Counted from the stretch's first letter, positions 21,452 to 42,397 are shown. The stretch is 64,000 bases of DNA from Candidatus Daviesbacteria bacterium (GCA_028687915.1 JAQTZF010000001.1:290634-354633), one strand, 5' to 3'. Notes: generated by a model from the letters alone, not told the origin. Numbers and translations are program-made.

Positions 21452-22402
21452 ATGTTAGCTAAGATAATATCTGGAGCAAATGTGGGGATAGAATCTGTTG
21501 CTGTAACGGTGGAAATTGATATTGCTTCACAAGGTTTACCTTCTTTTACTCTGGTAGGATTGGCTGATAGGGCAGTTGAAGAATCAAGAGAAAGAGTGAG
21601 GTCTGCTTTAAAAAATACTGGTGCTGATTTTCCAGCCAAAAGAATTACTGTTAATTTAGCACCAGCTGATTTACCAAAAGTTGGGCCTGCTTTTGATTTA
21701 CCAATAGCTTTAGGATTGCTTATTGCTTCTGGACAGGTGGTAGGGGATTTATCAGACACTATGTTGGTGGGTGAATTATCTCTTGATGGAAGTTTAAGGT
21801 CTACCAATGGGATTTTGGCTTTTACAATTTTAGCTAAAAGTTTGGGTTTAAAAAGAATTTTTGTTCCCCTTGAGAATGCAATTGAAGCAGCAGTGGTGGA
21901 AGGAATAGAAGTATATGGATTTGAAAATTTACTGGAAGTTTTTAATTTCTTAAGTGGAAATTTAGAAAAATCACAACAACCTCTAACAGATTTAGATAGA
22001 AGTGATGATTTATTATATGAATATGATTTTAAAGAAATTAAAGGCCAAAATCAGGCTAAAAGAGCACTTGAAATTGCAGCAGCTGGTGGACATAATGTTA
22101 TATTAAAAGGCCCTCCTGGAGCAGGGAAGACGCTTTTGGCGCGTGCTTTTCCATCTATTTTACCAAAGCTTACTAAAGAAGAATCTTTAGAGATTACCAA
22201 AATTTATTCTGTAACAGGTAATTTATCTAAAGGTTCATCACTAATTACCACACGTCCTTTTCGTTCACCTCACCATACTGCCTCCTATGTTGGAATAATC
22301 GGGGGAGGAAATAATATTAAACCAGGTGAAGTGTCTTTAGCTCATAGAGGTGTATTATTTTTGAATGAAGTGTCTGAGTTCTCGAAGAAATTTTGCTTCT
22401 GA
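21452..22402 (+). CDS. comM: ComM/YifB Mg-chelatase-like AAA+ ATPase, N-terminal fragment, truncated by prophage insertion
   Basis: Lon-like N-terminal domain, Walker A GPPGAGKT and start of Walker B (LAHRGVLFL). The last 12 codons (NEVSEFSKKFCF*) are phage-derived. The remainder of the gene resumes at 59830. Confidence 0.85.
   Translation: MLAKIISGANVGIESVAVTVEIDIASQGLPSFTLVGLADRAVEESRERVRSALKNTGADFPAKRITVNLAPADLPKVGPAFDLPIALGLLIASGQVVGDLSDTMLVGELSLDGSLRSTNGILAFTILAKSLGLKRIFVPLENAIEAAVVEGIEVYGFENLLEVFNFLSGNLEKSQQPLTDLDRSDDLLYEYDFKEIKGQNQAKRALEIAAAGGHNVILKGPPGAGKTLLARAFPSILPKLTKEESLEITKIYSVTGNLSKGSSLITTRPFRSPHHTASYVGIIGGGNNIKPGEVSLAHRGVLFLNEVSEFSKKFCF
22358..22390. repeat. attL: core (22358-22369) plus phage-side integrase core-type arm (22370-22390)
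   Basis: The arm GTGTCTGAGTTCTCGAAGAAA is the near-perfect inverted complement of the arm at 59811-59829. Confidence 0.55.
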
Positions 22403-22554: not shown

Positions 22555-23637
22555 ATGAGCTATCAAAAATTCCTCTCGGAATATACGGATTTTATCAGGT
22601 ATGACCGAGACCTTTCTGAGCATACTGTCGAGGTGCGGGAGCAATGGCTCAACCGCTTCTTTCGTGATCTCGGCGACAAGGAATTCACTTTTGAAAATAT
22701 CCGCGAGCATCTTCGAAACTATAAAAGGGGCAATCTCTCTCCGAATTACATCAATGTCCTGGTGACCTCTCTCAACTCCTTCCTGCGATTTCTGATCGCT
22801 GAAAAACACCAACCCCTGGAAGACTTCACCTCCAACCTCAACCAACTGCGCCCGAAGAAAAAGTTCGTTTTGTATCAGACGCTTTCCCTGGATGAGATCG
22901 AGAAGCTGATCAGCCCGCCACCGCGCAAAAATAACTACAATGTTTTCGGCAAGCCCCACCTATATCCGAAGTATAAAAAGTGCGATGAGATGTGGTCGCT
23001 GCTGCTGGAATTTCTCGCAAAGACTGGCTGCCGTCCTGGAGAAGTGATCGATCTCAATGTTGGCGATCTTAACTTTGGCACTGACGAGTTTATAATCCGC
23101 GAGACAAAGACCGATGAGCAGCGCATTGTGCCGATCCCTCCTGACATGACCACGAAAATGCGTGAGTGGATTAAAAGCAGAGGCGAGATTCCGCCTTCCT
23201 CTCCACTGTTTATCACCATGCACTTTGCCAGGACTCGTCCTAATTCCAGGATCGGCGAGTCGATGATCAATAAAATCATCAGGGAGAGAGCCAGGAGAGC
23301 TGGGCTGCATGTCGACAAGCGCTTCCACGCCCATAGTTTCCGCCATTCTTTTGTGACTGAAATGCTCCGCCAGGATGTCGCGATCTCAAAGGTGCAGCGC
23401 ATCGTCGGTCACCGCAAAGTCGACACGACCATGATTTACACCCACATGGTTGTCGATGACCTCCGCCAGGCGATGCTGAAACACCCTCTAATTCGCAAAT
23501 CACAAGACCCGCATGCTATTATCGAGAGCGTGAAAGAGGAGATTAAATCATTCAAATTGCACGGCGACGAGCGTTTTGATTACACATTAACCGAGCGGAA
23601 CGACGGCTTCTCCTTCGAGCTATCCCTTAAGAAGTAG
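22555..23637 (+). CDS. tyrosine site-specific integrase (phage integrase family)
   Basis: 360 aa. Catalytic R…HxxR…Y residues lie in HAHSFRHSFVTEMLR…HRKVDTTMIYTHM. An N-terminal SAM-like domain is present. Confidence 0.9.
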   Translation: MSYQKFLSEYTDFIRYDRDLSEHTVEVREQWLNRFFRDLGDKEFTFENIREHLRNYKRGNLSPNYINVLVTSLNSFLRFLIAEKHQPLEDFTSNLNQLRPKKKFVLYQTLSLDEIEKLISPPPRKNNYNVFGKPHLYPKYKKCDEMWSLLLEFLAKTGCRPGEVIDLNVGDLNFGTDEFIIRETKTDEQRIVPIPPDMTTKMREWIKSRGEIPPSSPLFITMHFARTRPNSRIGESMINKIIRERARRAGLHVDKRFHAHSFRHSFVTEMLRQDVAISKVQRIVGHRKVDTTMIYTHMVVDDLRQAMLKHPLIRKSQDPHAIIESVKEEIKSFKLHGDERFDYTLTERNDGFSFELSLKK

Positions 23638-23647
23638 TTGTATAATT

Positions 23648-23950
23648 GTGCATATGGCTGACCACAAAAAAAAGGCTCAGGAGATCGTTGCCCGCGCCTA
23701 TAATTTATCCGATGCTTTCGAAGAAACTGTTGAGGAGCTTTTTAACTACCTGGACAGTGTGAAGGAAAAAAGGCGCAAGCAGTTTGGTGAGGACTCCGAA
23801 CCCTATAAAACATCAGTGCAATATGTCGCGATGTGCCGAGAGATTCTGAAAAAAATCCAGACTAACCACGCCGAGGGGTTTGACCTTCTTCTCGAATTCG
23901 TCAAAGACCACATCGAGAAAGAACAGCTCGAAGACTCTCCGTCTACTTAA
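23648..23950 (+). CDS. hypothetical protein (prophage; possible moron or lysogeny gene)
   Basis: 100-aa ORF co-directional with the integrase and GC-rich. No motif recognized. Confidence 0.4.
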   Translation: MHMADHKKKAQEIVARAYNLSDAFEETVEELFNYLDSVKEKRRKQFGEDSEPYKTSVQYVAMCREILKKIQTNHAEGFDLLLEFVKDHIEKEQLEDSPST

Positions 23951-24194
23951 AAAATACCCTGAATACGACATCAATAATGATCGTCACTATGGCAACTGCC
24001 ACGCTGATTTTTACAGTGATGGTATTTACCTGGATTTTCAAATTGTCTACATCGCACTGCAGTGTATGCAGGTGGTTGTTTTTGATCTCACCCAGGTCTT
24101 TGTTGATATAGTTCAAGCCATTGTCGACGCGCTCCTCCAGCTTGGCGACTCTTTCGATGATTTGTGTGTTGGTTGTTCCGTTATCGTTTGCCAT
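23943..24194 (-). CDS. small lysis-associated membrane protein (coiled coil plus C-terminal TM)
   Basis: 83 aa, last gene of the late operon. The C-terminus ISVAVAIVTIIIDVVF is hydrophobic. Confidence 0.4.
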   Translation of the reverse strand: MANDNGTTNTQIIERVAKLEERVDNGLNYINKDLGEIKNNHLHTLQCDVDNLKIQVNTITVKISVAVAIVTIIIDVVFRVFFK

Positions 24195-24206
24195 AGTGAT
24201 TTCGCA

Positions 24207-24479
24207 TTAAAACGGCAATTTATCAACTAGAGCGGTTTTGTCTTCCGATCCGAAGATGTCTCTGAGTAACTTCCCGATGGCGTTCACCCCCGCGACTAAT
24301 CCAGAAAGCAGGAACGGATATGCGAGTAGGGTTTTGAAATTCTCCCAGCTGGCGAATGCTTCCGCTCCTGTATTGATCAGCACTATCGATCCAGTCACAA
24401 AAAAGGCTGAGACAAAAACTCTCAGAAACCTCCAGGCGACTTTCTTCCACTCAGGGTATAGTTGATCTAATGGGTTCAT
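24207..24479 (-). CDS. holin-like protein (2 TM)
   Basis: 90 aa with two TM helices. Lies directly downstream of the endolysin gene with a 4-nt overlap. Confidence 0.45.
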   Translation of the reverse strand: MNPLDQLYPEWKKVAWRFLRVFVSAFFVTGSIVLINTGAEAFASWENFKTLLAYPFLLSGLVAGVNAIGKLLRDIFGSEDKTALVDKLPF

Positions 24480-25588
24480 GCTTTCTTCACCTCCTTTCTA
24501 TTGATTAAATTTTTAATGAAGTTGGTCAATGCTGTGATCACCGCGTTTATGATGCTGGTTTTTACTGGGAGCTGACCCTTCTGACAGGCTTCGAGCTGGC
24601 TTTTGGCAGTTTGAGCCTCTAATAGCGCCCGACCTTTGGCTTTGTTGGCTTCGTCGAGTTCCCCCTCCAGCACCTTCACTCTACCCTCGGCTACCTTGAC
24701 GATTTCAGGCAGGTTTTTGATGTCCTTTTTAAGCGCATCGAGCAGGTCTTTATAATACTTTTCCTTCTCTAGCACTAGCTTTTCGAGTCTGCTAACCTGT
24801 TCGGTTCGGTTGGTGATTTCAGTGTTTGCCACATCGAGGTCTTTTTGCTTCTCTCCCAGCTGGTTTTTCAGGTCAGTTTCCCTCGATTTATACCCTGCAG
24901 CCACACTCTTAACTTTGTCGCTGGGGGTAGTGTTTGGGTCGTCAGTTATCTCAAGAATCTTGAGAGTCTCTGCCCATTTTGTAGCGCTGGCAACTATCTG
25001 CTCGTATTTTGTGCGCCATTCTGGAGTGTTTGGCACAAGGCAACCCTCGGCTGCATCGATTGCTGCAGGCGTTCCTTCATACCAACACCAGGAATAAATC
25101 AATTTCTGAGCTGTCACGCCCCAGCTGGTGATCCTTTTTTCCGCTCCGTCCCAGGGGTCTTGCACTATAAAGTCGTCGCCGTCATAACCGATAGCCAGAA
25201 TCCAGTGTTCGTCGAATGCACTGGTTGAAGGGATCGTGTCGATCTGTAAAAAGACTGGGAAGCCTTTGTCGATTGCTCCTCTGATCTGGTTCATTTGATC
25301 CTGGGTAAGTGCCTGGCTGTTTGACCACTTGCCTGAGTATTTGAGACCCGCAAACAATTTCGGGATCGCTCCCCAGATTAAGAGATTGCCGTCCTGGTAT
25401 CCGCCGTTTTGAGTCATTTTTTCGTTTAAGGTGAGCGGTGTCTCTTTGAATCCGTAATAGCTCACTGACATGGTGGCGCAGTTTAAGAGGCATCCCACTC
25501 CTCCGATTGTGCCTTTTGTCCCCATCGGGCTGTTCTTCCAGCGGGGATCGTTCTGACAATATGTGACTGGTAGTGTTAGTTTTTTCAT
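24476..25588 (-). CDS. endolysin candidate with N-terminal C39-like (papain-fold) peptidase domain and C-terminal coiled coil
   Basis: Cys nucleophile context GGVGCLLNCATM and His context HWILAIGYDGDDFIVQDPW (peptidase_C39_2 / DUF3335-like). About 140 C-terminal residues of heptad-rich coiled coil end in an amphipathic helix. Confidence 0.6.
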   Translation of the reverse strand: MKKLTLPVTYCQNDPRWKNSPMGTKGTIGGVGCLLNCATMSVSYYGFKETPLTLNEKMTQNGGYQDGNLLIWGAIPKLFAGLKYSGKWSNSQALTQDQMNQIRGAIDKGFPVFLQIDTIPSTSAFDEHWILAIGYDGDDFIVQDPWDGAEKRITSWGVTAQKLIYSWCWYEGTPAAIDAAEGCLVPNTPEWRTKYEQIVASATKWAETLKILEITDDPNTTPSDKVKSVAAGYKSRETDLKNQLGEKQKDLDVANTEITNRTEQVSRLEKLVLEKEKYYKDLLDALKKDIKNLPEIVKVAEGRVKVLEGELDEANKAKGRALLEAQTAKSQLEACQKGQLPVKTSIINAVITALTNFIKNLINRKEVKKA

Positions 25589-25592: not shown

Positions 25593-28500
25593 TTATTTGA
25601 AAAGTCCTAGCGGATCATTTCCTTTTGTTGCCCCGCCTCCTGTCGGGAACATTTGCCCCATTGTTGGTTTAGCGGAAGGCGCTGGTGCGCTGCCTCCCAT
25701 CAAACCCAGTGGGTCATTCGCTCTCGGTGCGCTTCCGCCAGGTTTTAACACAGGATTTTTAGTGCCTGCTGGCGCACTGAGTTTGAGTAATCGCTGCATG
25801 TCGCTCGCGTCGAACATCACACTCTTTTGAAAGCTCACCGCTTCTTTTGGATCGTCGGCGAACAGGAGAGGAGTTATCTGCGGGACAATGAGTTTGGCTT
25901 TGTTATTCCAGTCGGTTGCGATCTTTTGGGCTTGCGGTAAATTGCCTGCAGTCAGTGCTTTTTGCACCTGGATTCTGGCGGTGTTGTATCCGACAGTGGT
26001 ATCGTCCAGGAGTTGCCAGGCTGCATTCTCTTTTGCTCCTCCCTGGGTTCTGACGAATCTCTGCAGCGACGCACCAACTAGATCGCTCGGATTGAAGACA
26101 TACTTGCTGCTTGAACCGAATAACCCAGTGGCGATGTGGGCGATTCTCATCGGACTCCATCCGACGGCTCGTCCCAGCATTACTGCCAGAGGTTCTGTCT
26201 TCTCGTTATATTGCTCGGTAGGTGCGACCTTCTCCAATTTTCTCGGAATGATCGGGAATCCTGTAAATAGATTCAAGTTTGTGACTTCTTCGACCAGGGT
26301 TTTCAATGCTGGCGGTAGCGCTCCTCCCAGGAAAGCACTGCCTGATAATTCGCCGTCTCTACTGAAAGGAACTGGTGAGAGTTGGCTTGTCCATTCGACT
26401 GCCAATTTCAGCAGGTTGGCTGGCTCTTGCTTCCTCACATACTCAAAGGCGTATTCGAGCGGATTGTAGAAAATAGCACCCATGTCTCCTTTGGGAATCT
26501 GCAGCACTTTCGGCACTGTTTTGCCTTCCTTGTCTTTTTCAGAGCCTAAAATGATAATGAAATACTGATCCTTTGCCCACTGCGGGATGTCGTCCCAGAG
26601 GTCTTCGTGATTCATGATGTTATAGAAATAGGTGGCGACACCTGGCATGACAATGAGCGCCATTGCTTTGAGTGCCGACTTGAGCGGGTTTTCTTTGAAA
26701 GCATCTTTGACTCTGAGGAGTCCTTGCCAGCGGGCATTCACGAAAGGAATCCACTGGTTGATGATCCTCATCTCTTTGCCTGCTTTTGCAAAATCGACTG
26801 TGGCATTTCGGGCTTCGAAAGCTGCCTCGGTTGTCGTCACTCCTGGCTTGGCAATACCTTTTTTGTAGATGCCCAGTCTCGGCGCGAGTTCTACCGCTTC
26901 AGAGAAGTTGCTAATAAGCTGGAAGGGATTGATGATCGCCTTTGTTTTCGTCCACCAGGATGGCGTGAACAATTCTTTTGAAACAACTGACAGCTGCTTC
27001 GCGTTGCCGATATAACCGCCGTATCCTCCCTGGTTTTTCAAGAAATCATCATAGGCTTTCGACTCCCATTTGAATGCTCCCTTGAAGCCATCCATGAGTC
27101 CTGAGAGCCAGTTGACTGGACTGAAGCCCCACTTCGTCACTATCGATGCGGTCTGGAAGTCGCGGATCGCGTTGGTCAGGGTAAAAGGAATATAGAAGGT
27201 GGTCACACCCGCCTTGAATGCTCTGGTTGATGCCATTGCCAGTTTGCCCATGACGCCTGCCTCAGCTGGACTGAGTGCGTGCATCGCTTCGGACAGCTCT
27301 TTTGGCACAGCCCAGCGCGTCACCTTGCCGTTTATGAAGGCACTGATGGTGTCCCAGTCCTTCGGCGCTTTGGCGTCTTTGTAGAGATATTTTATAAATT
27401 CTTTTGCTTCGGGATGACTCTTTCTCAGATCGATCAATTTCCTGGCGACTTCGTTTCTCTTGGTCAGGTTGATTGCTTTGCTGAGGTTGTCGACGATTGA
27501 TTCAAAAGGATCGCGAATCTGTTTTTCCGTTCCTTTTAATCCCTGAATGACACCCTGTTTGCTGACAGAGAATGTCTCGCTGCCTGCCTGCATCTGGTCT
27601 GCTTGTTTAGCATCAGGTAGGTAGTCGAGGACATGGAATGGCATCCAGCTCTTATTTTTCTCGACAACGGCATTGAATGCCTTTTTGCTGATCAGTCCTG
27701 TGTCTCTCATCGGTTCGAGGATGTTTCGGATCGACCAATTCTGGATCGCTTGCCCTGCCTGTTCGAACTGCTTATAAACTTTCTCGCCGACTTTTTCTTT
27801 CAATTCAGTGAGAGCTTTTTCTCCTGTTTCTTTGGTCACACCTGCTGGGTTGTCGAAGCCTCTGTCGGCTCTTTCGATGGCACGCTGCGCCAGGACATAG
27901 CGGGTGAAGTCTGGTCGGAATTTTCTCACTGGTGAGACGATCTTTTGCAGATCACGGAAAGCGACCTCAATCGTTCCGAATCTGCCCGCGTAGAGTCGCG
28001 CTGCAATATAAGGACTGGAATCAATATCGATGGGGAGTCCCTGCAGTTTGCTGACTGTTTCCTCGAATTGCTTCATAGGAGCATAGCGGTCAGTGAAGTT
28101 TCTGCTAAACCAGGGCTTGACCCCTTTGAGCCAGTCTGCCACTGATGCAGCTTTTCCGAGTTTGCCGACCATTTTATCGATCTGCTCCAGGGCGCTACCT
28201 TCTGGCGGTGGAGGAGCTTGAGTGATCGGTTCTTCTTTTGGTGGTCGTGGTGCGCTTCCTTTCGGAGGAGTCGCCATTTCGTCAGCCCGCATCTTTTTGG
28301 GTGCTTTGACTTTGCCCTGCATTCTCTCCTGGAATTTCTTCAGGTAGGCTTCTTTGTCTTTCATGATTTCGCCAACACTGGGGACACGCTCGGCATCCAG
28401 GAGTTCTTTTTCTTCTGGTCGATATTTAAGTCTGATTTCTTCTGCCTTCGCTGCTTTTTGCTCCTGGGCAGTGAATTGCTGCGCGATCTGATCATCGATC

Positions 28501-30764
28501 TTTTTAATGGCTCGGACGATTTTGTCATCGCCAGGGTTGGAATAGCGCAGTTTTTCGAGAGCATCTTTTTTCAGCTGCAGCTGTTTAACCTGCGGGCTTA
28601 CCTCGCCAGGTTGTTTCTCTACTTTTGGAGGGGTGACCTTTGTCTCAGGAACTGGCGCAGGTGCTGGTTTGGGTTCGGGCGCTTTCACTTCCGCTGGTTT
28701 GACCCAGGGCTTTGTGAATCTGTCGCCGTTTTTCGTCCACCATTTTGCTGCTTCCGTTTCAGGAATTACTTTTTTGTCAAAATAAACTGCTTGAGGTTCG
28801 ATATTGCCAGTCTGAGTGTTCTTGCCCATGAGGTAGGAGACACCAGCTGTCTTGCCTTTTTGTCGGAATATAGAGCCTTTATCAAAAAGACCCGCGTCTT
28901 TGACCGCCACCTTACCGACTTTATCAGTGGAATCGGCATCGAATTGAAAACCCTCAGTCGGTTTTGCGGGAGCTGGGGCAGTGGCTGCCTTGATAGTCGA
29001 CATCACTTTTTTATACCCCTCAATATCGTAGCTTTTGCCCTTAAACATGGCATAAATATCTTTGTATTGATCGTTAGTTATTTTCTGCCCCTGGAATTTT
29101 TTGGCTTCTTCCATGAGATTGAGTTTGCTGTTGACGCCGTTTTTGAGATTATCGATCACCCAGTTGACCACCCCTTTGTTGACAGTCATGTCTCTGGCAT
29201 ATTTATTCGTCTGACCATACTGATTGCGCAGGGTATTCCAGAGAGCTTTGCCATCCTTCCAGGTGGGATTTGTGATCGCGACTTCTTCCGCGATTGCAGG
29301 CGTTTGCTCGGTTGCAGCTGGCGTCTCTTTCAGAGTTGCCGATGGCGCTGCTTCGGGAGTTTTGACTGCTTCAGCGATTGCCATTTCAGGCGTTCCTTTT
29401 GATGGCGTCACCTTGATGTTTTGTTCTTTTGCCAGGGTTATGAGATCGGAGTTTGAAAGTTTGTTTGCTGGTAGTCCGAATTTTGTTTTGACTTCTTCGC
29501 CACCCAGACCCTTGATAACCTCAGCTCGTTGCTCATCGGTGAGTGTGGATCGCACTGAGAGTCCTGCTGGCATGTTTCTGATGGTGCTTACCACTAAGGC
29601 TCGTTTGTCGGGGACATTCACCCACAGCTCGCGGAATAAATCCTCGAACTCCTGGCGGAATGTCTTGCCAGTGTAGCCTGTTGGATTCTGGATTTTCGTC
29701 AAGAACTCATAGGCGCGGTTGGCTGTATTCCATGCCTGATTGAACTGACCCATCTCTTGCGGTGTTTGCATCGACTGAGCTGGGAATTGTTTTGTGATGT
29801 CGACGACCTTTTGTTTCCAGGCAGTTTTGATCTGATCCGCGCTGGCTTTCTCGTTGACTCCGAGATAATCGAATGCCTGTTTTTTAGTGATGCTCAGCTG
29901 CTCGGATGCAGCTTTCTCCATGTTCTTTTCGAGTTGCGCTGCCTGTGATGGGAATGCTTTTGCCAGGGCGTAGTTGGTAGAGTGGAGTGCAATCACTGCT
30001 GCCGTATTTTTCAATGCGTCTTCAGGACTGTCTCCCTTAATAAGTGAGGTGACATAAGCTGCAGGAGCGATGATTCCAGTCGACTTGAAATAACTGGGTT
30101 TCATACCTGCAATAGAAAATGCCCCTCCCAGAGCAAAGTCAGCTCCAAAGTCTTTGGCACGCTGCGAAGCGTCCTTGTAGAACTCTGATTTTTGAACCTG
30201 ACCTAGACCTGCGAAGGTTAAACCATTCGTCAGAAGTGAGTAAGTTTTGGGTGCAATACGAGCGAATCTAGCGACAGCAGGAATCCCTCTGGCTGCGCCT
30301 TGAATCAGCTCTCCGCCCACTAGAAAAGTTGCGACAGTGCCGAGAATGTTAAATTCGACATCGGTCATTTTGGCTGCCATTGCTGCAGTGTCGTCGGCAT
30401 ATTTAATCTCTGGATTCCACCAGCCGAAAGTGAATGCTTTGGCAAGTCCTGTGCCTGCCCCTCCGAGTGCGCCGACTGTGGCGCTGGGGAGTCGTTCCCA
30501 GAACCCTGACTCTCTTGCGCCGATCCCGAATGTTTGTGCTGCCGTCTCGACCCAGAGATTCTCGTAAGGTTTATAGCTTCCGCCTTTGTCTCCAGGGATC
30601 GCGTATTCTGATTGTTTGGTGAGTTCGGCTATCGGTTTGAAAAGATCAGTGGCTTTTGTGCTGACTGGCTTGAAGAAATCGCCCAGTGTTTTTCCCACAG
30701 AAGACACTCCCTTCTCGATAGGGCTTAATATGTTTGTTTTCAGTGTGTCTAAAAAGTTTGGCAT
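25593..30764 (-). CDS. giant virion protein (1723 aa); candidate internal/ejection or tape-measure-like protein
   Basis: Uninterrupted 5.2-kb ORF. Gly-zipper-like hydrophobic segments at the N-terminus and middle, a Pro/Ala-rich linker (KPAEVKAPEPKPAPAPVPE) and a Gly-rich C-terminus. Position is between the tail-fibre genes and the lysis cassette. Confidence 0.6.
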   Translation of the reverse strand: MPNFLDTLKTNILSPIEKGVSSVGKTLGDFFKPVSTKATDLFKPIAELTKQSEYAIPGDKGGSYKPYENLWVETAAQTFGIGARESGFWERLPSATVGALGGAGTGLAKAFTFGWWNPEIKYADDTAAMAAKMTDVEFNILGTVATFLVGGELIQGAARGIPAVARFARIAPKTYSLLTNGLTFAGLGQVQKSEFYKDASQRAKDFGADFALGGAFSIAGMKPSYFKSTGIIAPAAYVTSLIKGDSPEDALKNTAAVIALHSTNYALAKAFPSQAAQLEKNMEKAASEQLSITKKQAFDYLGVNEKASADQIKTAWKQKVVDITKQFPAQSMQTPQEMGQFNQAWNTANRAYEFLTKIQNPTGYTGKTFRQEFEDLFRELWVNVPDKRALVVSTIRNMPAGLSVRSTLTDEQRAEVIKGLGGEEVKTKFGLPANKLSNSDLITLAKEQNIKVTPSKGTPEMAIAEAVKTPEAAPSATLKETPAATEQTPAIAEEVAITNPTWKDGKALWNTLRNQYGQTNKYARDMTVNKGVVNWVIDNLKNGVNSKLNLMEEAKKFQGQKITNDQYKDIYAMFKGKSYDIEGYKKVMSTIKAATAPAPAKPTEGFQFDADSTDKVGKVAVKDAGLFDKGSIFRQKGKTAGVSYLMGKNTQTGNIEPQAVYFDKKVIPETEAAKWWTKNGDRFTKPWVKPAEVKAPEPKPAPAPVPETKVTPPKVEKQPGEVSPQVKQLQLKKDALEKLRYSNPGDDKIVRAIKKIDDQIAQQFTAQEQKAAKAEEIRLKYRPEEKELLDAERVPSVGEIMKDKEAYLKKFQERMQGKVKAPKKMRADEMATPPKGSAPRPPKEEPITQAPPPPEGSALEQIDKMVGKLGKAASVADWLKGVKPWFSRNFTDRYAPMKQFEETVSKLQGLPIDIDSSPYIAARLYAGRFGTIEVAFRDLQKIVSPVRKFRPDFTRYVLAQRAIERADRGFDNPAGVTKETGEKALTELKEKVGEKVYKQFEQAGQAIQNWSIRNILEPMRDTGLISKKAFNAVVEKNKSWMPFHVLDYLPDAKQADQMQAGSETFSVSKQGVIQGLKGTEKQIRDPFESIVDNLSKAINLTKRNEVARKLIDLRKSHPEAKEFIKYLYKDAKAPKDWDTISAFINGKVTRWAVPKELSEAMHALSPAEAGVMGKLAMASTRAFKAGVTTFYIPFTLTNAIRDFQTASIVTKWGFSPVNWLSGLMDGFKGAFKWESKAYDDFLKNQGGYGGYIGNAKQLSVVSKELFTPSWWTKTKAIINPFQLISNFSEAVELAPRLGIYKKGIAKPGVTTTEAAFEARNATVDFAKAGKEMRIINQWIPFVNARWQGLLRVKDAFKENPLKSALKAMALIVMPGVATYFYNIMNHEDLWDDIPQWAKDQYFIIILGSEKDKEGKTVPKVLQIPKGDMGAIFYNPLEYAFEYVRKQEPANLLKLAVEWTSQLSPVPFSRDGELSGSAFLGGALPPALKTLVEEVTNLNLFTGFPIIPRKLEKVAPTEQYNEKTEPLAVMLGRAVGWSPMRIAHIATGLFGSSSKYVFNPSDLVGASLQRFVRTQGGAKENAAWQLLDDTTVGYNTARIQVQKALTAGNLPQAQKIATDWNNKAKLIVPQITPLLFADDPKEAVSFQKSVMFDASDMQRLLKLSAPAGTKNPVLKPGGSAPRANDPLGLMGGSAPAPSAKPTMGQMFPTGGGATKGNDPLGLFK

Positions 30765-30820: not shown

Positions 30821-31915
30821 TTAAACTCCTGGCGTAAATAACCTTTTCAAAAAGCCACCGATACCGCCTTGCGTTTTTGTGTTCCATTCGTCGTCGATGA
30901 TGCTTGAGACATTCTCTCCTTTGTCCGTGACTGCTGTTCCGTAAGCTCCCTTCAGCTGATCTGCTGTGTAGCCTTGCTTCCATGCGTCCCTGATTTTCAT
31001 TCGAAGTCCCTCAGAGGGAATCGTTTGCGCTGCTGCTCCAGTTCCTGCTCCTTCTTCTGATTGATAATAGGTGGTCTTTCCTGTTGCTGGGTCAAAATAT
31101 CCGACGATATTGCCCCATGCGTCTTTCACTTGCTGCTGGTTTGCACCTGATCCGCCTTTGCTGGCATTGATTCTGCCTGTCTGTGCTTCGTAGAGTTTGA
31201 GTTCAAACTCTTTCTCCCATCTGCTCGTTTCGGTTGCTGCTGATAATTCTTGCGTTCTCGCTTGCTGGTAGGTTTGTAGTAAGCCTCCCAGGAATTGCAG
31301 GTTGTATCTCATACTGTTGACTGACGATTCTTTGTCTTTTGTCTCCATGCCCACCTTGTTGGTGATCTCTCCGAGTTTGGCGTTATATGTGCCTGCTTTC
31401 GTGTTTCTCTCATCGATCAGGTTATTGATCTTGGCGTTGGCGAGTCTTTGAATTTCGCCAGTTTCTCCAGTGATTGTCGCTGCGCTATACCCTGGATTCT
31501 TTCGCACTTTTGAGACTGATTCGTCTCTTAAATTCTTTTCGGTGGCGATGCTGGTATCTAAGGCATCAATTTCGCCTTTGACTTTATCCAGTCCTGACTT
31601 GCTGTATTCCTCCTCGTAGCGCCTGGTCTGGTAGCCTTGCAGCTCTGATTCCGCACCCTGCAGTTTGCCGTAGGTGTCCTGAAAATTCGTTTGCAGTGTC
31701 GGCAAGTCAAAGCCCATTAAATTCATAGAGCCTCCGCCTAAGTTGCTCAGTCCTGCTGCCAGATTTCCTACTGATCCCTGCCCACCTTGACCTTGACCTT
31801 GACCTGGGTCTTCGCCGTTTGTCCAGATGCCTTCGCCCCACCATCTCTGGTTTTTGCCTGTGGTTGGGTTGTCATACCATCCGCCGTATTGTTTGTCTGC
31901 CATGTTATTTTTCAC
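30821..31915 (-). CDS. hypothetical virion protein (Gly/Gln-rich N-terminus, coiled-coil middle)
   Basis: 364-aa ORF in the structural gene block. Confidence 0.45.
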   Translation of the reverse strand: MKNNMADKQYGGWYDNPTTGKNQRWWGEGIWTNGEDPGQGQGQGGQGSVGNLAAGLSNLGGGSMNLMGFDLPTLQTNFQDTYGKLQGAESELQGYQTRRYEEEYSKSGLDKVKGEIDALDTSIATEKNLRDESVSKVRKNPGYSAATITGETGEIQRLANAKINNLIDERNTKAGTYNAKLGEITNKVGMETKDKESSVNSMRYNLQFLGGLLQTYQQARTQELSAATETSRWEKEFELKLYEAQTGRINASKGGSGANQQQVKDAWGNIVGYFDPATGKTTYYQSEEGAGTGAAAQTIPSEGLRMKIRDAWKQGYTADQLKGAYGTAVTDKGENVSSIIDDEWNTKTQGGIGGFLKRLFTPGV

Positions 31916-32138
31916 CTCCTTTCGTTGGTTGTTTTACTTCAGTAATAACTCCAGTAACTAAGTTGAAGCTCCACTCCTTATTGCCATCGAGTCCGTATTT
32001 TGAGAACAGACTGACGAGCCAGACATTCTTTTGAGCTTCTAGCGCCTGGCTGATTGCGATGTGCTGCCTGACGAGTTTGTCTTTTTCTTGCAGCTCGATC
32101 AGGTCTTCGTTTTTTAGTTTTAATTTTTTATTGAACAT
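31905..32138 (-). CDS. hypothetical small protein
   Basis: GGAGG RBS sits before ATG at 32136-32138. The track ORF extends to 32213 but that overlaps the upstream gene. Confidence 0.4.
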   Translation of the reverse strand: MFNKKLKLKNEDLIELQEKDKLVRQHIAISQALEAQKNVWLVSLFSKYGLDGNKEWSFNLVTGVITEVKQPTKGGEK

Positions 32139-33447
32139 ATGCCTCCTTAATGACCCCAGGTTTGGTCTGCCACGCCTGGGTGAAATCAGTAATCTTTTTG
32201 TCGACATCTCCACCTGTTTTTCTGATCTGTTTTACCCGATGGTCGAAATATCGCTTTTTGAATGAGTCCTCGGTTTCGTCAGCCTCTTTGACGATGATCT
32301 CTCCCTCTGGTTCGAAGTCCTTGCCGAATGCGCCGTCGCGGATAGTGAAGACAATAAAATCAAAGGGAGCGCTCGACTTGCCTCCAGCGATCTCTTTGAC
32401 TGTCATGCTGTTTTTATCGACCTCTTTGACGAAGATTCCGTTGCAGTCTCCGCGCGGGGTGACATAAGCGGTGACCTTCCTGGCGTCACTGACTGCTGGG
32501 AAGTGGGCGGGAAAAGCGATCTTGCGCTCTCCGTTTGCCAAAGTATCCGATCCACGATGCACCAGCAAGACTTCAGCTGCTTCGATCCCTGTATAAACAA
32601 GCAGATGATTTTTCTTGAGCGGGTGAGGGATCGTAAAATTACACCAGCCAGTTTTGTTGATATTGCCCGCGACATTCAGTGCCTGCATTCCGCACATCAT
32701 GATGTTTAAGCTGGAGAGGTAAGCAATACCTCCGTAAATTCTTTCTGCCGACATCGACCCTGTGGTGATTTTTCCTGCGTTAAGATTGGCGATTTCGGCA
32801 TCAGTGACCGCTAAATCTTGAATCTTGGCTGTCGAAATGGCTGCATTCATGATTTTCGAATTGCCCACAGCCAAAGCGCCGATCTGCGCCCAGGTGACGG
32901 CGAGGTCTTGAATCTTTGCCGTGCTGATTGCTGCCTCCATTATCCTGGAATTACCCACCTGCAGGAGTCCGATTTTCGAATTGGTGATGGTTTCGTTGGC
33001 GATCTCGGCGTTGGTTACTGCCAGGTCTTGGATTTTGGCAGTGGAGATCGCAGCGTTCATGATCTTGCTGTTACCGACCTCTGAGTTGCCGATTTTGGCG
33101 TTGATAATCGCTGCGTCCTGGATGTGTGCCGTGATGATGACCGCTTCTTCTACCTGTGCCGACAGTGTAATGACTGCACCTGTTTTGAAGACCTTTGCTG
33201 CAGTCACGGCGTCGTCTTTTAGCTTTGATGTAGCGACTGCTGCAGCTGCCAACTTTTCCTCAGTGACCGATAAATCCATGAGGTTACCATCACTCACGGC
33301 GTTTTCTTTGAGCTGCGAACTTCCCACTGATTGCGGAGCAAGGGGGAGAGAATCCACGCCGTTGTGGGTGTGCGGTTGCACGACAGGGAAGGGCTGGTCT
33401 GTGACCTCCCTGTTCGTAAATACCTTTTTTATTAAGTCTGTTAGCAT
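32128..33447 (-). CDS. tail fibre-like protein with about 10 tandem 20-aa repeats
   Basis: 439 aa with the iterated unit AISTAKIQDLAVTNAEIANL…NSKIMNA (period about 60 bp in DNA, 32740-33140). Confidence 0.55.
   Translation of the reverse strand: MLTDLIKKVFTNREVTDQPFPVVQPHTHNGVDSLPLAPQSVGSSQLKENAVSDGNLMDLSVTEEKLAAAAVATSKLKDDAVTAAKVFKTGAVITLSAQVEEAVIITAHIQDAAIINAKIGNSEVGNSKIMNAAISTAKIQDLAVTNAEIANETITNSKIGLLQVGNSRIMEAAISTAKIQDLAVTWAQIGALAVGNSKIMNAAISTAKIQDLAVTDAEIANLNAGKITTGSMSAERIYGGIAYLSSLNIMMCGMQALNVAGNINKTGWCNFTIPHPLKKNHLLVYTGIEAAEVLLVHRGSDTLANGERKIAFPAHFPAVSDARKVTAYVTPRGDCNGIFVKEVDKNSMTVKEIAGGKSSAPFDFIVFTIRDGAFGKDFEPEGEIIVKEADETEDSFKKRYFDHRVKQIRKTGGDVDKKITDFTQAWQTKPGVIKEAYVQ
32740..33140. 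repeat. about 60-bp-period tandem coding repeats inside the tail-fibre gene
   Basis: Repeated GTCTTGAATCTTTGCCGT / GTCTTGGATTTTGGCAGT-type units. Confidence 0.5.
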
Positions 33448-33451: not shown

Positions 33452-34909
33452 TTATAAAATGCCTAATGGCTCGAAATAAGTTGTCGCCGATATAATTTCA
33501 GGCGTGTCATTGCCATTCGGATGCAAACTGACCGCCAGCTCGTAGTCTTCGCCTTCGCCTGGGTTGTCCTCATCTCCGCCTGTCTCGATAGTGAAAATCG
33601 CTTTTGTTTGCCCGACCTTATCGAATAACTCTGCGCCGTCCTGCATGGTTGCCAGCTGCCAGGTGGCTTCCTGATTGACCTTGTAATAGACTTCGATGCT
33701 GCAGTCGGCTGGCAGGGCTTTGGTCAGTAGTTTTATATGTCTGAATCCTTTTTGAGTGAATGTTTCCCCGCCGTCAAAAATCAAGCCTTCAAAGCGTCCC
33801 TCGGCTTTGTTGTCCTCGTCAATAACATCGACGCCGAAGGTTGCGCCATCCTGCCAGGAGACGAATAACTCATCGCCATAAACTGTCAGCGCTCCGATTG
33901 AGACATCTTCCATTTTTCCGTGTGAGGGAATGTATTCGAGATTGAGCGCATAGGGATCGTTTTTGTTGATCCTGCCGTAAGAGTAGACTCCACATTTTTC
34001 CGATCCGTTTAAGCCATAAAGAGGCAGCCCACCATAATTGCAGACTGCTCCTGGGTTGACCCAGCCATATGTCCCAGGGAATTTCTTGATCTTCATGAGG
34101 GTGGCAGTGTCCCAGAAGTAGAGTGCGCCTTTGATACCTGCCTGAATCGTCAGGAATTCACCCTGCATCATTGCGTTGACGCCTCGCTCGGCGACCATGC
34201 GTCTTTGAATCCAGGAGGGTTGAATTTTGTCCCATGTCCAGAGCCAGCCTTCTTCAACCTTGTCGCCTTTGTGCGATCCGAGCAATACCAGCTGATCTTG
34301 ACTCACAAGCACTTTATGACGATGACCTTTGGGAACATCGAGAGCTTCGAGATTGAAGCCTCCCTCGTAATCGACCATTGCCAGGTTTTGTGCGTCGCAG
34401 ATAAGTAGAACTCCCAGGGCTTCCACTGCTGTGTGCCAGGCAGGATCGCCATTGAGTGATTGCCAGTCGTGTTCGACATCAGTCGCCCAGTTACTTTCGT
34501 CAGCTTTGCTCAATAAAATTCTTGAGACTTTGGTTTCGGTCATCCAGTAAAGGTAAGGAACATAGTTGTCGCTGCCGTCATTGTTGGTGTATTCGGCTGC
34601 ACCAGTGATTTTGCCGTTGGCGTCCGTATAAACCAGCTCCCACGCTGAGGTGGGGGTAGCTTTCCTATACACATTTCCTGTATCACCGAAGCCATAAAGC
34701 TGTCCGTTTGAAGCGGGAACGAAAAATAGAATCAGATCAGTGACTGTCGTCAATGAGTCTTTTTTGAGTGCTTGATTGCATTTTAGGGTGTTTTCTTCCC
34801 CTCGGATATTTAAGCCATACCCGAACTGGAATGCTTCTCGCACTCCCTGATGGGGATCGTCTGCGATCCCTCCTCTGAATCCCTGTATTTTATAAGCGTT
34901 TAGTGCCAT
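33452..34909 (-). CDS. hypothetical tail or receptor-binding protein, beta-propeller-like
   Basis: 485 aa with recurrent aromatic beta-strand motifs (YGFGDTGNVY, WELVYTD, YLYWMTE, GWLWTWD, LYFWD). Confidence 0.45.
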   Translation of the reverse strand: MALNAYKIQGFRGGIADDPHQGVREAFQFGYGLNIRGEENTLKCNQALKKDSLTTVTDLILFFVPASNGQLYGFGDTGNVYRKATPTSAWELVYTDANGKITGAAEYTNNDGSDNYVPYLYWMTETKVSRILLSKADESNWATDVEHDWQSLNGDPAWHTAVEALGVLLICDAQNLAMVDYEGGFNLEALDVPKGHRHKVLVSQDQLVLLGSHKGDKVEEGWLWTWDKIQPSWIQRRMVAERGVNAMMQGEFLTIQAGIKGALYFWDTATLMKIKKFPGTYGWVNPGAVCNYGGLPLYGLNGSEKCGVYSYGRINKNDPYALNLEYIPSHGKMEDVSIGALTVYGDELFVSWQDGATFGVDVIDEDNKAEGRFEGLIFDGGETFTQKGFRHIKLLTKALPADCSIEVYYKVNQEATWQLATMQDGAELFDKVGQTKAIFTIETGGDEDNPGEGEDYELAVSLHPNGNDTPEIISATTYFEPLGIL

Positions 34910-39233: not shown

Positions 39234-39512
39234 TTAATGTCGAGGAGGTCTAGCTCCTTTTTTTTCTGGGACATCGAGCTTGATGTTATATCTGGCGTTG
39301 GCTTTCATTCCGATCACACCCATGATCTTTCGAAGTGCCATGATCGTGCTGCCTGCCTTGCCAATCACTAAGCCCGCATCTTTTTCGTCAAGTTTGACTA
39401 AAAGAAGCACTCCCATCTCGTCGACTTTGCGCTCAACTGTCACTTTCTCTGGCTCGTCAACAAAGGCTTTTATGATTTGCTCTAATAATGTTGCGTCTGT
39501 GCTTTCTTGCAT
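39234..39512 (-). CDS. KH-domain (KhpA/YlqC-like) RNA-binding protein
   Basis: 92 aa with a GxxG loop in LVIGKAGSTIMALRKIMG, typical of type-II KH domains. Confidence 0.5.
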   Translation of the reverse strand: MQESTDATLLEQIIKAFVDEPEKVTVERKVDEMGVLLLVKLDEKDAGLVIGKAGSTIMALRKIMGVIGMKANARYNIKLDVPEKKGARPPRH

Positions 39513-39542: not shown

Positions 39543-40130
39543 TTATAAATCTGGTTCTAGTGTCAATATCAGCTGGGCTGCGTTGGCTGCCCCACTGTTA
39601 AAGTCATAGATATTTTCGTAATTGTTTGCTGGACTGCTGTTGTCCTCGATCACCAGCCCGATTGCCTTATTCGTGAATTCTGTCTGATCGATAATTTCCT
39701 GAATGATTGCCTTAATGTCAGGGCTTTCATACCAGGTGTTTTGCACCCAGTCTGCTCCAGGAATCCAGGCTACTGTCGCTGTCGTTTTCGGTTGCTGTGA
39801 TGGTCGGTGAGTGGCGTCGAAACTCAAGGTGCTGGTTTGCTTAATCCCTTTGATGATCAGGTTGGGTCGCTTGGTTGAATTGACGGCTGATTTCACTCTC
39901 AACTTGGCACTGGTGATCTTCACATTGTTGGGGAGTAGAGGTCTTAAGAACCTGAACCCTGCATCGTTGCTGCCAGTATTGTCATTACCCATCGAAATCT
40001 GGTTACTTCCGTAACCATTCGGGTAGAAAGTTGTGTCGTAGTCTTCCTCGCCGTCATCTGAGTTGACGATGATTCTGAGCTTCGAAAACATCCTTCTTAT
40101 GTTGACTAGCGATGGTTTGAATTTAGACAT
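39543..40130 (-). CDS. stand-alone copy of the ~170-aa repeat domain found three times in the 862-aa protein
   Basis: 195 aa. Aligns by eye along its full length to the 862-aa protein's domain 1 (DDGEEDYDTTFYPNGYG…WYESPDIKAIIQEI…). Confidence 0.55.
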   Translation of the reverse strand: MSKFKPSLVNIRRMFSKLRIIVNSDDGEEDYDTTFYPNGYGSNQISMGNDNTGSNDAGFRFLRPLLPNNVKITSAKLRVKSAVNSTKRPNLIIKGIKQTSTLSFDATHRPSQQPKTTATVAWIPGADWVQNTWYESPDIKAIIQEIIDQTEFTNKAIGLVIEDNSSPANNYENIYDFNSGAANAAQLILTLEPDL

Positions 40131-40443: not shown

Positions 40444-41040
40444 TTAAAATTTCGGCTGATCAGCTGTGCTTCTGATTCCTGAGACTGCTTTTGGCTTATC
40501 CGAATCTTCAGCTTGTCCTTTGGCTGCCATCTCTTTCTTAGTTACCGCTGCTTCTCTGGCTGCGAGTTCTTTCTCGCGCTGCTCAAGGTCTTTATACTGC
40601 GCTGCAATCAATTCATTGCTGGCTTTACCTTGATCTTTTCTGTTGATCTTAGTGAAAGCATTGCCGTTGTTGGCGTGGTTATCTAGGAACTCGATCTCAT
40701 CTGGATCGCTGGTTCGGTAGACACCCTCATGAAATTGGATCGAAGACCCTGGGACTGTGATAATTCTGCCGTTCACCTCTTTGGTGTAGGACGACCTATT
40801 CACCAGTCGCAATTCGAGATACTTCGAGATATAGACTTCTTGCTGCGGTTTTTCGCTTTTGGCTGATTTCTCAGTTTTTGGTTTGTCTTTAGGCATATTT
40901 TCACCCCCTTCCTGGGCTTCCTTAAGACGAGCGATTAACTCGTCCTTTTTCCCATCTTTCGGCACGCCGAGTTTCTTGGCTTCCGCCCAGAGTTCTGGCA
41001 TAGACATTTCTTCTAATGTTTTATTTTCTGTGTCGCTCAT
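40444..41040 (-). CDS. hypothetical protein with N-terminal HeH/SAP-like motif
   Basis: MPELWAEAKKLGVPKDGKKDELIARL resembles a Rho-N/SAP helix-extension-helix motif. Charged coiled coil follows. Confidence 0.4.
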   Translation of the reverse strand: MSDTENKTLEEMSMPELWAEAKKLGVPKDGKKDELIARLKEAQEGGENMPKDKPKTEKSAKSEKPQQEVYISKYLELRLVNRSSYTKEVNGRIITVPGSSIQFHEGVYRTSDPDEIEFLDNHANNGNAFTKINRKDQGKASNELIAAQYKDLEQREKELAAREAAVTKKEMAAKGQAEDSDKPKAVSGIRSTADQPKF

Positions 41041-41209: not shown

Positions 41210-42397
41210 TTAGAGTGCGCCCATGCTCATGATGGCGTGACGACTCGTTTGTTCCATTTGCAATCCAACTTCGCTCAAATACTCATCGACCTGGCTATCT
41301 TCTCCATTCGCCTGACGATTGGTCAGGAGTTTGGTGTCTCGGTTACTGAGGTAGCGGTAGGTCAGACATTCCATATCAAGTCCGATGGCGTAGTTCCCAT
41401 AGGTCGTTCCAGTCAATAGCGGATGCTTGATGATATGCACTGTGCCGTGTGGCGAGTTGTAAGTCACAATCCTAAGCCCGTAGGCTTTGTCTGCTGCCAT
41501 TACTTGGAGTTTCCCTTTCGCCCATCCATTGATCATCGAGACCACTGCTGCCGATGAGAAAAGATACTTCTCTGAATTTCCGTGTGCGAACAAGCTCTCC
41601 AACCATGTCTCAAACTCTGCTTCCGTGTCTACATTCGCGGTAGAGTAGGTAGTTATCCTGCTCAAAATACCTGCTGTGAAGCGTTTCGGATGCGTTCCAC
41701 TGGTTACGATTCCTCTCTTTCCGAATAAGAATGCTCGCTCAATATCGATCATGTGTTCGATACCTTTCTTGCGTCTCTGATAGTCAAAGTCATTTTCCTT
41801 CGTCCACATCTTGCTGTTCTTGGCTGTTTCAGTGATACCGATTGGCGTTCTGAAGATTTGGGCATATCCGTAGACTTCTGCTGCTAGGGTCGACTTGATG
41901 GCTCTCAAGGTCGCACCTTCCTCATTCACATTTCCGATCAACCAAACATCGCCTGCTGCGGATGCAGCTGCGCCTGTTGCCCCTCCTAACTCTGCTCCTA
42001 CCACGACTGTATCGACATCGGTTACCGATTGCACTTCAAATACCCATTTCTGCGCTGCGACCATGATCACATCTCCTGCCTGGAGATACTGAGTTTGTGC
42101 TGTCAAGGTCAAGTTGCCTCCGTCTGGGTCGACATTTCCTGAACCTGTGAGTTGTCTCTTTCCGAATTCGTCTTCAAACCACTTAAATTGAGGATCGATT
42201 GTCTCGACCTTTTTCATGGCTTTGCCCTGTTTCGTCACTGGGTCTTTCCCCGCGTTGGTCAATATCGCTAAAAGCGGATACTGATTGACATCCAAAAGCG
42301 AAATGACATCTGCGACATCGTATTTACGAGTCGGCATTGCCGTCGCTGACGCTGGTGCTGTGTTTGTTCCTCTGATTCCTGTTGCTGATGCTGACAT
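41210..42397 (-). CDS. major capsid protein candidate
   Basis: 395 aa. Lies immediately downstream of an acidic scaffold-like gene. Size and position fit an HK97-fold MCP. No direct sequence match could be verified. Confidence 0.5.
   Translation of the reverse strand: MSASATGIRGTNTAPASATAMPTRKYDVADVISLLDVNQYPLLAILTNAGKDPVTKQGKAMKKVETIDPQFKWFEDEFGKRQLTGSGNVDPDGGNLTLTAQTQYLQAGDVIMVAAQKWVFEVQSVTDVDTVVVGAELGGATGAAASAAGDVWLIGNVNEEGATLRAIKSTLAAEVYGYAQIFRTPIGITETAKNSKMWTKENDFDYQRRKKGIEHMIDIERAFLFGKRGIVTSGTHPKRFTAGILSRITTYSTANVDTEAEFETWLESLFAHGNSEKYLFSSAAVVSMINGWAKGKLQVMAADKAYGLRIVTYNSPHGTVHIIKHPLLTGTTYGNYAIGLDMECLTYRYLSNRDTKLLTNRQANGEDSQVDEYLSEVGLQMEQTSRHAIMSMGAL

Follow-up and report, generated by a model that had tools for sequence, protein, structure and literature searches.

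A 64,000-nucleotide stretch of Candidatus Daviesbacteria DNA (GCA_028687915.1 JAQTZF010000001.1:290634-354633; hereafter the window, all positions being counted from its first letter) carries a prophage island whose late region includes a gene of exceptional length, located on the minus strand at 25593..30764, which starts with ATG and encodes a protein of 1723 amino acids (aa) followed by a stop codon. The open reading frame (ORF) of this giant gene had been delimited with the same ends and length in an initial annotation made from the sequence alone, and it was confirmed as a genuine gene by the ORF list, by a protein identical to the window giant (P0001) recorded in a Candidatus Daviesbacteria metagenome-assembled genome, and by the ratio of nonsynonymous to synonymous substitution rates (dN/dS), which relative to the orthologue on IMG/VR contig L005 amounts to 0.08 in the N-terminal module, 0.10 in its C-terminal counterpart and 0.17 in the C-terminal tail. 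Both conserved ends of the giant protein are under strong purifying selection. We found 34 further homologue clusters, with 58-82% identity across the aligned parts, in Daviesbacteria, Woesebacteria, Microgenomates and metagenomes. All peptides quoted in the initial annotation were located in the protein (at aa 97, 140, 307, 349, 1687 and 1709), and the gene lies where it had been placed, with a tail-fibre gene and a 364-aa gene on one side and the lysis cassette on the other.

BLAST mapping and an alignment of the clade indicate that the giant protein is designed as conserved ends around a variable, swappable middle (all segments given below are encoded on the minus strand). The N-terminal module (aa 1-470) is present in all 34 relatives, with 62-74% identity in its core. 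It opens with a leader (aa 1-60, MPNFLDTLKTNIL...; 30585..30764) that has an occupancy of 0.88 and 45% identity among the 34 clusters from phages of candidate-phyla-radiation (CPR) bacteria and was modelled by AlphaFold2 (AF2) with low confidence, followed by a Gly/Ala-rich, moderately hydrophobic helical module (aa 61-290; 29895..30584) with 70% clade identity and a predicted local distance difference test score (pLDDT) of 30-55. Next come the J-like domain described below (aa 291-360; 29685..29894) and a conserved post-J domain (aa 361-470, NPTGYTGKTFRQEF... to KVTPSKG; 29355..29684; occupancy 0.93, 62% identity), for which no family match was obtained and which reaches a pLDDT of ~85 at aa 410-450. 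The variable cassette zone (aa 471-740; 28545..29354) ranges from absent to ~400 aa among relatives in the BLAST map (occupancy 0.38-0.50), and an ART-like 'TLYHGT' domain occupies it in many of them. In the window giant it holds a helical domain (aa 505-595; 28980-29252), common to the distant relatives P0059 and P0060, and a small beta-containing domain (aa 613-700; 28665-28928), which are connected by Pro/Ala-rich linkers and neither of which is assignable to a family. Searches with the cassette zone gave sub-threshold matches only (BRX and DUF2624 in Pfam, and UPF0335), and the BRX, DUF2624, MCM_C and L19e matches were discarded as lying below the Pfam cutoffs and being biologically implausible. 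The whole protein had no match in the PDB by sequence (phmmer; best E 0.78, a UPF0335 protein).

The cassette zone is followed by clade-conserved charged helices and a Pro-rich linker (APRPPKEEP...APPPPEGS; aa 741-870; 28155..28544), modelled as helices at 724-815 (pLDDT 81-93 about aa 720-770) and a disordered linker at 821-850, and then by a conserved helical C-terminal module (aa 871-1660; 25785..28154; 72% clade identity) and a disordered Gly-rich tail (aa 1661-1723; 25596..25784; pLDDT <50). The AF2 model of aa 859-1723 (pLDDT 76, predicted template modelling score (pTM) 0.69) is compact and mostly helical, with two beta-hairpin insertions. The Pro/Ala-rich linker and Gly-rich C-terminus pointed out in the initial annotation are thus both present, the former as four linkers (about aa 471-504, 596-612, 701-740 and 831-870) that, like the tail, are all modelled as disordered (pLDDT <50).

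The same annotation had described Gly-zipper-like hydrophobic segments near the N-terminus and again near residues 1100-1300. Against the usual transmembrane threshold of 1.6 for mean Kyte-Doolittle hydropathy over 19 residues, the maxima of the giant protein are 1.44 (aa 136-154) and 1.28 (aa 1363-1381), and the peak within aa 1100-1300 is 0.91. The helical module at aa 61-290, in which many Gly and Pro residues are near-invariant, shows peaks of 1.44, 0.97, 0.92 and lower, and only two uncharged runs of at least 18 residues occur in the whole protein. GxxxG motifs are not enriched (3 observed versus 2.2 expected), while the small-xxx-small-xxx-small pattern is marginally so (12 observed versus 6.8 ± 2.7 expected). 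The segments are moderately hydrophobic helices, not classical transmembrane segments: the hydrophobic character that had been noticed stands in moderate form, whereas the transmembrane and Gly-zipper reading was dropped as stated, because no 19-residue mean reaches 1.6 and GxxxG occurs at about expectation.

The giant protein had also been described as fitting no nameable family, but its C-terminal module matches Pfam LPD38 (PF18857) at aa 1388-1561 (26082-26603, minus strand) with 83.2 bits against a cutoff of 27, and this profile evidence places it in the LPD38 'large polyvalent protein' family (PMC5512222). In PHROGs, aa 878-1536 match phrog_9854 (unknown function; E=4e-66), and the conserved C-terminal unit (~750 residues) is much larger than the 189-position Pfam LPD38 model. 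By tblastn, aa ~830-1561 align at 22-28% identity with giant proteins of 52-54 cultured-phage records, including the pelagiphages HTVC034P, HTVC204P and HTVC010P, Bacillus Pageviruses, Vibrio VvAW1 and many other Vibrio phages, Thalassomonas BA3, Shewanella X14, Aeromonas phiARM81mr, and E. coli PTXU04 and Pondi. Foldseek against BFVD returned 74 matches with E <= 0.001 and template modelling (TM) scores of up to 0.64, PTXU04 included, all of them C-terminal pieces of giant phage proteins and every named one of LPD/LPD38 or polyvalent type. The PTXU04 protein, PTXU04_00025, matches at 27% identity over 432 aa in addition to this fold match, and the profile of the C-terminal module aligns with the 2807-aa last-gene product of the Stx phage phi24B with an hhalign probability of 100 (E=2.4e-39, 739 columns).

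LPD domains were defined within 'polyvalent proteins', which are predicted to enter the virion and to be injected along with the DNA (Iyer et al. 2017; PMC5512222). In keeping with this family, the window giant is a phage-encoded multi-domain protein whose gene lies near terminase, portal, SU10-type capsid, fibre, lysis and integrase genes. At least two disparate enzymatic domains, as the term polyvalent implies, were not detected in the window copy, and its relatives do carry ART-like, SLT, Zeta-toxin and ddrB-ParB domains; the relative P0057, for instance, combines ddrB-ParB, Zeta toxin and LPD38. Another relative, P0040, has an N-terminal SLT (aa 151-253) and a C-terminal LPD38, which is the gp16 arrangement. 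Two family members bear on function: the phi24B giant, which proteomics detected in abundance in virions and which cannot be seen in the cryo-electron microscopy map, was proposed to be an ejection protein (bioRxiv 10.64898/2026.04.10.717836), and PTXU04_00025, for which LPD38 is the sole annotation, is needed for efficient infection as determined by CRISPRi-ART knockdown (bioRxiv 10.1101/2023.09.18.558157). A third, the HTVC034P homologue (LPD38, 129 bits), is encoded behind the genes for tail tubular A and B, an acetyltransferase, an internal-virion-protein-B-like product and a protein of 580 aa, and thereby sits in the T7 gp16 slot. In Bacillus Pagevirus (phage Pascal), the LPD38 giant gene directly precedes the holin and endolysin genes, like the order in the window.

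The most conserved segment of the giant protein (74% identity) is one for which the initial annotation had likewise found no known family ('ASADQIK…NRAYEFL'), and it reads from sequence comparison as a degenerate J-like domain in which FPA (aa 327-329) replaces the HPD motif. This call is supported by P0059 and P0060, which are homologous to the window giant over the N-terminal module and score 38 bits for DnaJ. More precisely, the distant N-module relatives P0059 (2080 aa), P0060 (2613 aa) and P0061 (942 aa) have a DnaJ domain at the equivalent place, with scores of 38.8 and 38.3 bits for the former two (above the Pfam cutoff of 27.8) and 23.4 bits for P0061 (below it), and with HPD intact in all three (VHPDK, AHPDK and YHPDV, respectively). 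The window giant itself scores 16.2 bits (E=0.011) for Pfam DnaJ, below that cutoff. When the profile of the J region was compared with the PDB, 8/8 matches were J domains, all weak (E 0.2-0.8), and hhalign against the J domain of E. coli DnaJ (E=7.5e-4, probability 25%) aligned FPA on HPD. AF2 modelled the region as a helix-loop-helix with a pLDDT of 88-92, and FPA is present in 25/26 listed clade members, the remaining one having YPA. A J domain that has lost the His and Asp of its HPD no longer stimulates the ATPase of Hsp70; with HPD changed to FPA, canonical Hsp70 ATPase stimulation would therefore not be expected of the window domain. An exhaustive HMMER search of 1.84 billion representatives with aa 1-480 recovered no more than 11 clusters. 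A search of the literature for J domains in ejection proteins yielded nothing relevant, and the 2017 survey of polyvalent proteins makes no mention of J domains (PMC5512222). We also observed that P0059 and P0060 carry a DUF6782-like HExxH metallopeptidase motif, and that P0059 resembles the window giant at the two ends, over the N-terminal module and over ~80 residues just ahead of the tail, its central core being unaligned by BLAST.

At the opposite end, the disordered tail contains two copies of the peptide NDPLGL, at aa 1683-1688 (25701-25718, minus strand) and aa 1716-1721 (25602-25619, minus strand), with PTMGQMFPTGGG between them, so that the window giant ends …NDPLGLFK. Both copies switch together by subclade, between DPLGL, (I/V)(R/K)N(L/F)LL (including RNFLLQG), IKNLLRG/RSLIRQ and LIPLK/IKSLIYR types, and one distant N-module relative ends KSKFDYLY…NKFDYLYR. 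Such a duplicated, jointly changing motif suggests a docking peptide. Endings of the form PLG(x)[LIV] occur in 3/188 window ORFs versus ~0.5 expected, a pattern that was defined post hoc: they are those of the giant, of an acidic scaffold-like protein (42445-43287, minus strand; …NSPLGGLGI) and of a 485-aa protein (33452-34909, minus strand; …YFEPLGIL), and the ending may be a shared docking motif. The endings of the latter two proteins do not change when the tail type of the giant changes. A shared receptor, with co-variation of the giant tail and the scaffold C-terminus, was rejected because the scaffold ending is the same with DPLGL-type and IKSLIYR-type giants.

The prophage island that encodes these proteins spans ~37.5 kb with a guanine-plus-cytosine content of ~48%, that of the Candidatus Daviesbacteria host (~33%) being 15 points lower. 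It splits the host comM/yifB (Mg-chelatase-like) gene into an N-terminal part (21452-22402) and a C-terminal part (59989-60444), with junctions …HRGVLFL/NEVSEF and …SFL/DELPEF at about 22364-22381 and 59830-59853. The junctions form an imperfect protein-level repeat, FL[ND]E[VL][SP]EF, and no exact att direct repeats of at least 10 bp were found there. A tyrosine integrase (22555-23637) lies at the left end. The late genes are all on the minus strand, to which the window coordinates below refer: the small and large terminase, the portal (44971-46839; weak SU10 and P22 portal matches), the acidic scaffold-like protein and the major capsid protein of SU10 type (41210..42397; PF17236 SU10_MCP, 141.6 bits) are followed by small unassigned proteins, and these by an 862-aa protein, a 226-aa protein, the 485-aa protein, a tail fibre (32128-33447; PHROG tail fibre), the 364-aa protein, the giant, the lysin and two small membrane proteins. 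Pfam and PHROGs gave no match in the element to a tail tube, sheath, tail chaperone or tape measure, even at E <= 1, and at that level the earlier statement that tube, sheath and tape measure are missing holds. With its SU10-type capsid protein and no match to tube, sheath or tape measure, the element looks podovirus-like from its gene content. The window gene order is repeated on the P0006 contig and seven IMG/VR contigs, and the neighbourhood of the giant gene is kept in L004-L011, L012 and L015. The loci of P0059 (L012) and P0060 (L015) have an SU10-type capsid, a 483-485-aa protein, an S74 fibre, a ~400-aa protein and the giant gene, after which come small genes or a C39_2 lysin, and an integrase.

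Upstream of the giant gene lies the 364-aa gene (30821..31915), which always adjoins it in relatives. Its product, for which no family match was obtained in Pfam or PHROGs, is Gly/Gln-rich at the N-terminus and coiled in the middle, carries a conserved GGFL(K/G/R)RLF(T/R)(P/L)GV at the C-terminus (GGFLKRLF here), and is a possible companion internal or ejection protein. Downstream, the lysis cassette (23943..25588) comprises a Peptidase_C39_2-like lysin of 370 aa (24476-25588) and two small membrane proteins, of 90 aa with two hydrophobic segments and of 83 aa with one C-terminal hydrophobic segment, whose 19-residue hydropathy peaks are 1.88 and 2.49. In L004, the lysin (15079-16158) has a Peptidase_M23-like N-terminal domain instead of the Peptidase_C39_2-like one, while the C-terminal coiled-coil/hydrophobic part (aa ~160-370) is common to both, and the pair looks like a catalytic domain swapped on a conserved C-terminal half. 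The 862-aa protein (35662-38250), the only other long structural ORF in the element, consists of three ~170-aa repeats (signature DDGEEDY…WYPNGY…RPS.R.KT…IQEI…LVIE…, of no known family) and a C-terminal Amidase_2, an arrangement that ruled it out as a hidden tape measure; it is probably a virion-associated cell-wall hydrolase. A 195-aa gene (39543-40130) is a single copy of the same ~170-aa domain, and the counterpart of the 862-aa protein in more distant relatives has ~560 aa. Searches of cultured phages by tblastn with the portal and the 862-aa protein yielded no useful relatives.

Three other genes of the late region deserve mention. A 92-aa KhpA-like KH (RNA-binding) gene (39234-39512; PF13083, E=9e-17), odd among virion genes, lies inside the structural block and is kept in place in L004 and in 6/7 IMG/VR relatives (in L011 it was not detected). 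A 198-aa protein encoded directly downstream of the capsid gene (40444-41040) has an N-terminal SAP/Rho_N DNA-binding motif and is conserved in relatives, L015 also having a SAP-domain gene. Between the portal and terminase regions lies a full-length YceG/MltG-like gene (49375-50514; PF02618, E=3e-67), a family that in bacteria acts as an endolytic transglycosylase, so that the prophage encodes three putative cell-wall enzymes (YceG-like, Amidase_2 and C39_2-like).

Taken together, we favour, with a probability of roughly 60%, the reading that the giant protein is an ejection ('pilot') protein packaged in the capsid of a podovirus-like, temperate Candidatus Daviesbacteria phage. It is supported by the podovirus-like character of the element, the homologue in the gp16 slot, the virion proteomics of phi24B and the SLT in some relatives. 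By analogy, the giant would be comparable to the ejection proteins of T7 (gp16), P22, SU10 and phi24B, while falling outside the structurally characterised ejection-protein families. The earlier suggestion of an ejection protein analogous to T7 gp15/gp16 therefore survives as regards function and position, but not as regards homology. From these data we infer packaging, ejection, membrane engagement, conduit formation and roles for the tail peptides and the J-like domain, which could be ordered as follows. The giant would be made late, together with the tail genes, and a few copies would be enclosed in the head, where the helical LPD38 module of ~750 residues, the duplicated C-terminal peptides or both might anchor them. 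The 862-aa protein, a virion-borne amidase, would open the cell wall on adsorption, and the giant would exit through the portal and tail channel, before or with the DNA, in a partly unfolded state, its four flexible linkers making it a string of separately foldable beads. The moderately hydrophobic Gly/Ala-rich helices (aa 61-290 and 1360-1490) may then engage the membrane and help to build or extend a DNA conduit, and the J-like domain and the swappable middle cassettes would finally lie on the cytoplasmic side. Relatives have ART-like, SLT, metallopeptidase-like, Zeta-toxin or ParB domains as such cassettes, and the window giant has two small domains.

Several points weigh against this assignment. 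The giant of this phage is known from its sequence alone, and homology or fold similarity to structurally characterised ejection proteins was not detected. The ejection role of LPD38 in phi24B is a proposal, and PTXU04 shows only a requirement for infection. Within the protein, no segment reaches transmembrane-grade hydropathy (maximum 1.44 versus 1.6), the N-terminal half is modelled poorly (pLDDT 56), and neither a lytic nor another enzymatic domain was detected with Pfam and PHROGs, which leaves LPD38 and the J-like domain only. Finally, an SU10-type capsid alone does not prove a short tail.

The same family membership would also fit a pure cargo or effector carrier, injected like P1 DarB, T4 Alt or N4 vRNAP and acting inside the cell (anti-defence or takeover) with no role in a conduit, the LPD38 module serving as a packaging and delivery handle only. 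Iyer et al. (2017) define the family in this way (PMC5512222), relatives contain ART-like, Zeta-toxin, ddrB-ParB and methylase domains, some being annotated as 'DarB-like', the middle of the giant is a swappable cassette zone, and the protein is without a transmembrane-grade segment. However, the window giant has no recognisable effector, yet its 1723 aa are under strong purifying selection, chiefly at the two conserved ends; PTXU04_00025 is needed on a laboratory host, which fits core delivery better than accessory anti-defence; and the HTVC034P homologue positionally replaces gp16, while SLT, a cell-wall-penetration domain, is present in some relatives. We therefore consider a pure cargo carrier rather unlikely, if still credible.

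Two further explanations concern the virion itself, and we regard both as very improbable. A tape-measure protein, or an analogue of one, in a long-tailed phage whose tube genes are too divergent to be recognised would account for a large, mostly helical protein with hydrophobic Gly-rich segments, and small unassigned structural genes (96, 195, 167 and 136 aa) do lie between the capsid and tail genes. Yet no tape-measure, tube or sheath family was matched (Pfam and PHROGs, even at E <= 1), the gene lies past the fibre genes at the end of the late module instead of between chaperone and distal-tail genes, the AF2 model shows a compact multi-helix module (pTM 0.69) and no long coiled coil, and the capsid is of the type of SU10, a podovirus. 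Those cultured-phage matches whose tail type is indicated are moreover short-tailed ('P'-suffix pelagiphages, vB_ValP and phi24B; the others were not checked). The tape-measure alternative raised in the initial annotation thus fails on family matches, gene position and predicted shape. An external virion component, be it a fibre, spike, adhesin or head decoration, would be in line with the adjoining tail-fibre genes and with giant phage proteins sometimes being adhesins, but the protein is mainly alpha-helical, with no beta-helix, Ig-like, collagen or fibre repeats and no PHROG tail/fibre match, and the phi24B homologue is missing from the resolved external structure though abundant in the virion.

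Within the ejection-protein reading, a more specific proposal can be made that is speculative and, as a whole, a long shot: the N-terminal module, with its amphipathic Gly/Ala-rich helices and J domain, may be the hallmark of a class of ejection proteins that exploit the host Hsp70, in which the FPA clade is Pam16-like and the duplicated C-terminal peptides load the procapsid. If so, once the giant protein has been threaded unfolded through the tail and membrane, DnaK would be recruited by the J domain at the cytoplasmic face. It would then draw the giant in like a ratchet, refold it and perhaps prime the entry of the DNA, in analogy to the way in which J proteins and Hsp70 drive import into mitochondria. 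The HPD-intact P0059, P0060 and P0061 would act directly, whereas the invariant-FPA Daviesbacteria/Woesebacteria clade would represent a Pam16-like, non-stimulating variant, and the C-terminal peptides, changing together between subclades, would be the procapsid docking signal.

Many short-tailed phages, among them the abundant pelagiphage HTVC010P and Stx-converting phages, encode giant LPD38 proteins, for which to our knowledge no structure or mechanism exists. The cargo-free window giant shows the parts that the family keeps, namely an amphipathic module at the N-terminus that includes a J-like domain, a helical core of ~750 residues and a C-terminal peptide in two copies, arranged around a swappable cassette zone, and a J domain in a virion-delivered protein suggests that some ejection proteins engage the host Hsp70 on arrival. 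The locus also offers a clear-cut case of a temperate phage, intact in appearance, that has integrated in comM of a CPR bacterium, a group in which, as far as we know, phage entry has not been studied experimentally. The LPD38 family was already known; the interest of this member lies in the J-domain-bearing N-terminal module, the minimal cargo-free architecture and the CPR host.

Compared with known systems, the giant is similar in size to T7 gp16 (1318 aa versus 1723 aa in the window), with which it also has in common a late gene position and, presumably, the job of leaving the head first and building a DNA conduit. The window gene is the last of the tail block, and the HTVC034P homologue occupies the gp16 slot. 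The C-terminal module of the window giant is largely helical and soluble-looking, with marginally hydrophobic helices, and T7 gp16 is a soluble, helical protein whose transmembrane helices are only 'predicted' (PMC8954989). An N-terminal SLT is likewise found in some members of the LPD38 family (P0040), and none in the window giant. As for sequence and fold, the initial annotation was right that the protein resembles neither gp15 nor gp16: hhalign with the C-module profile gave a probability of 0.4% and 0.1%, respectively, and Foldseek against the PDB found no match for the C-terminal model (pLDDT 76; best E 0.56, TM <0.15) and no significant one for the N-terminal model (best E 0.02), the latter being a weak negative at a model pLDDT of 56. 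The top PDB matches, unrelated helical membrane proteins with TM <0.15, were taken as chance. The CPR host is presumed to have a single membrane, and its phage would thus have no outer membrane or periplasm to span, unlike a phage of the T7 host.

The SU10 (Kuravirus) likeness lies in the capsid protein of the prophage. Several proteins inside the SU10 head, including a transglycosylase, are lost when the genome is released (PMC9509320), and no homology to the SU10 ejection proteins gp20-24 was found, SU10 being absent among the tblastn matches; one giant, perhaps with its 364-aa neighbour, would here replace five smaller ejection proteins. Tape measures are likewise long and helical with Gly-rich hydrophobic stretches, but the giant differs from them in having no match to a tape-measure family (Pfam E <= 1, PHROGs E <= 0.1), the wrong gene position, no accompanying tube or chaperone genes and a compact predicted fold. 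To J-domain proteins (Hsp40/DnaJ), it is likened by aa ~298-359, which align over helix II, the loop and helix III, with Pam16/Tim16 as the comparison for J-like proteins that are without HPD; in contrast to J-domain chaperones, the domain is embedded in a predicted giant virion protein. The closest comparison is the LPD38 family itself (phi24B gp47/vb_24B_48, PTXU04_00025, Pascal gp19 and HTVC034P gp44), with which the window giant has in common the ~750-residue helical C-terminal module, the great size, a gene position that closes the virion/tail block, in many cases immediately ahead of the lysis genes, and a variable, multi-domain N-terminal two-thirds. It departs from this family in that, being without a detectable enzymatic effector domain, it is not polyvalent in the strict sense, and in that it combines a rare N-terminal module bearing a J-like domain with a duplicated C-terminal peptide and a CPR host.

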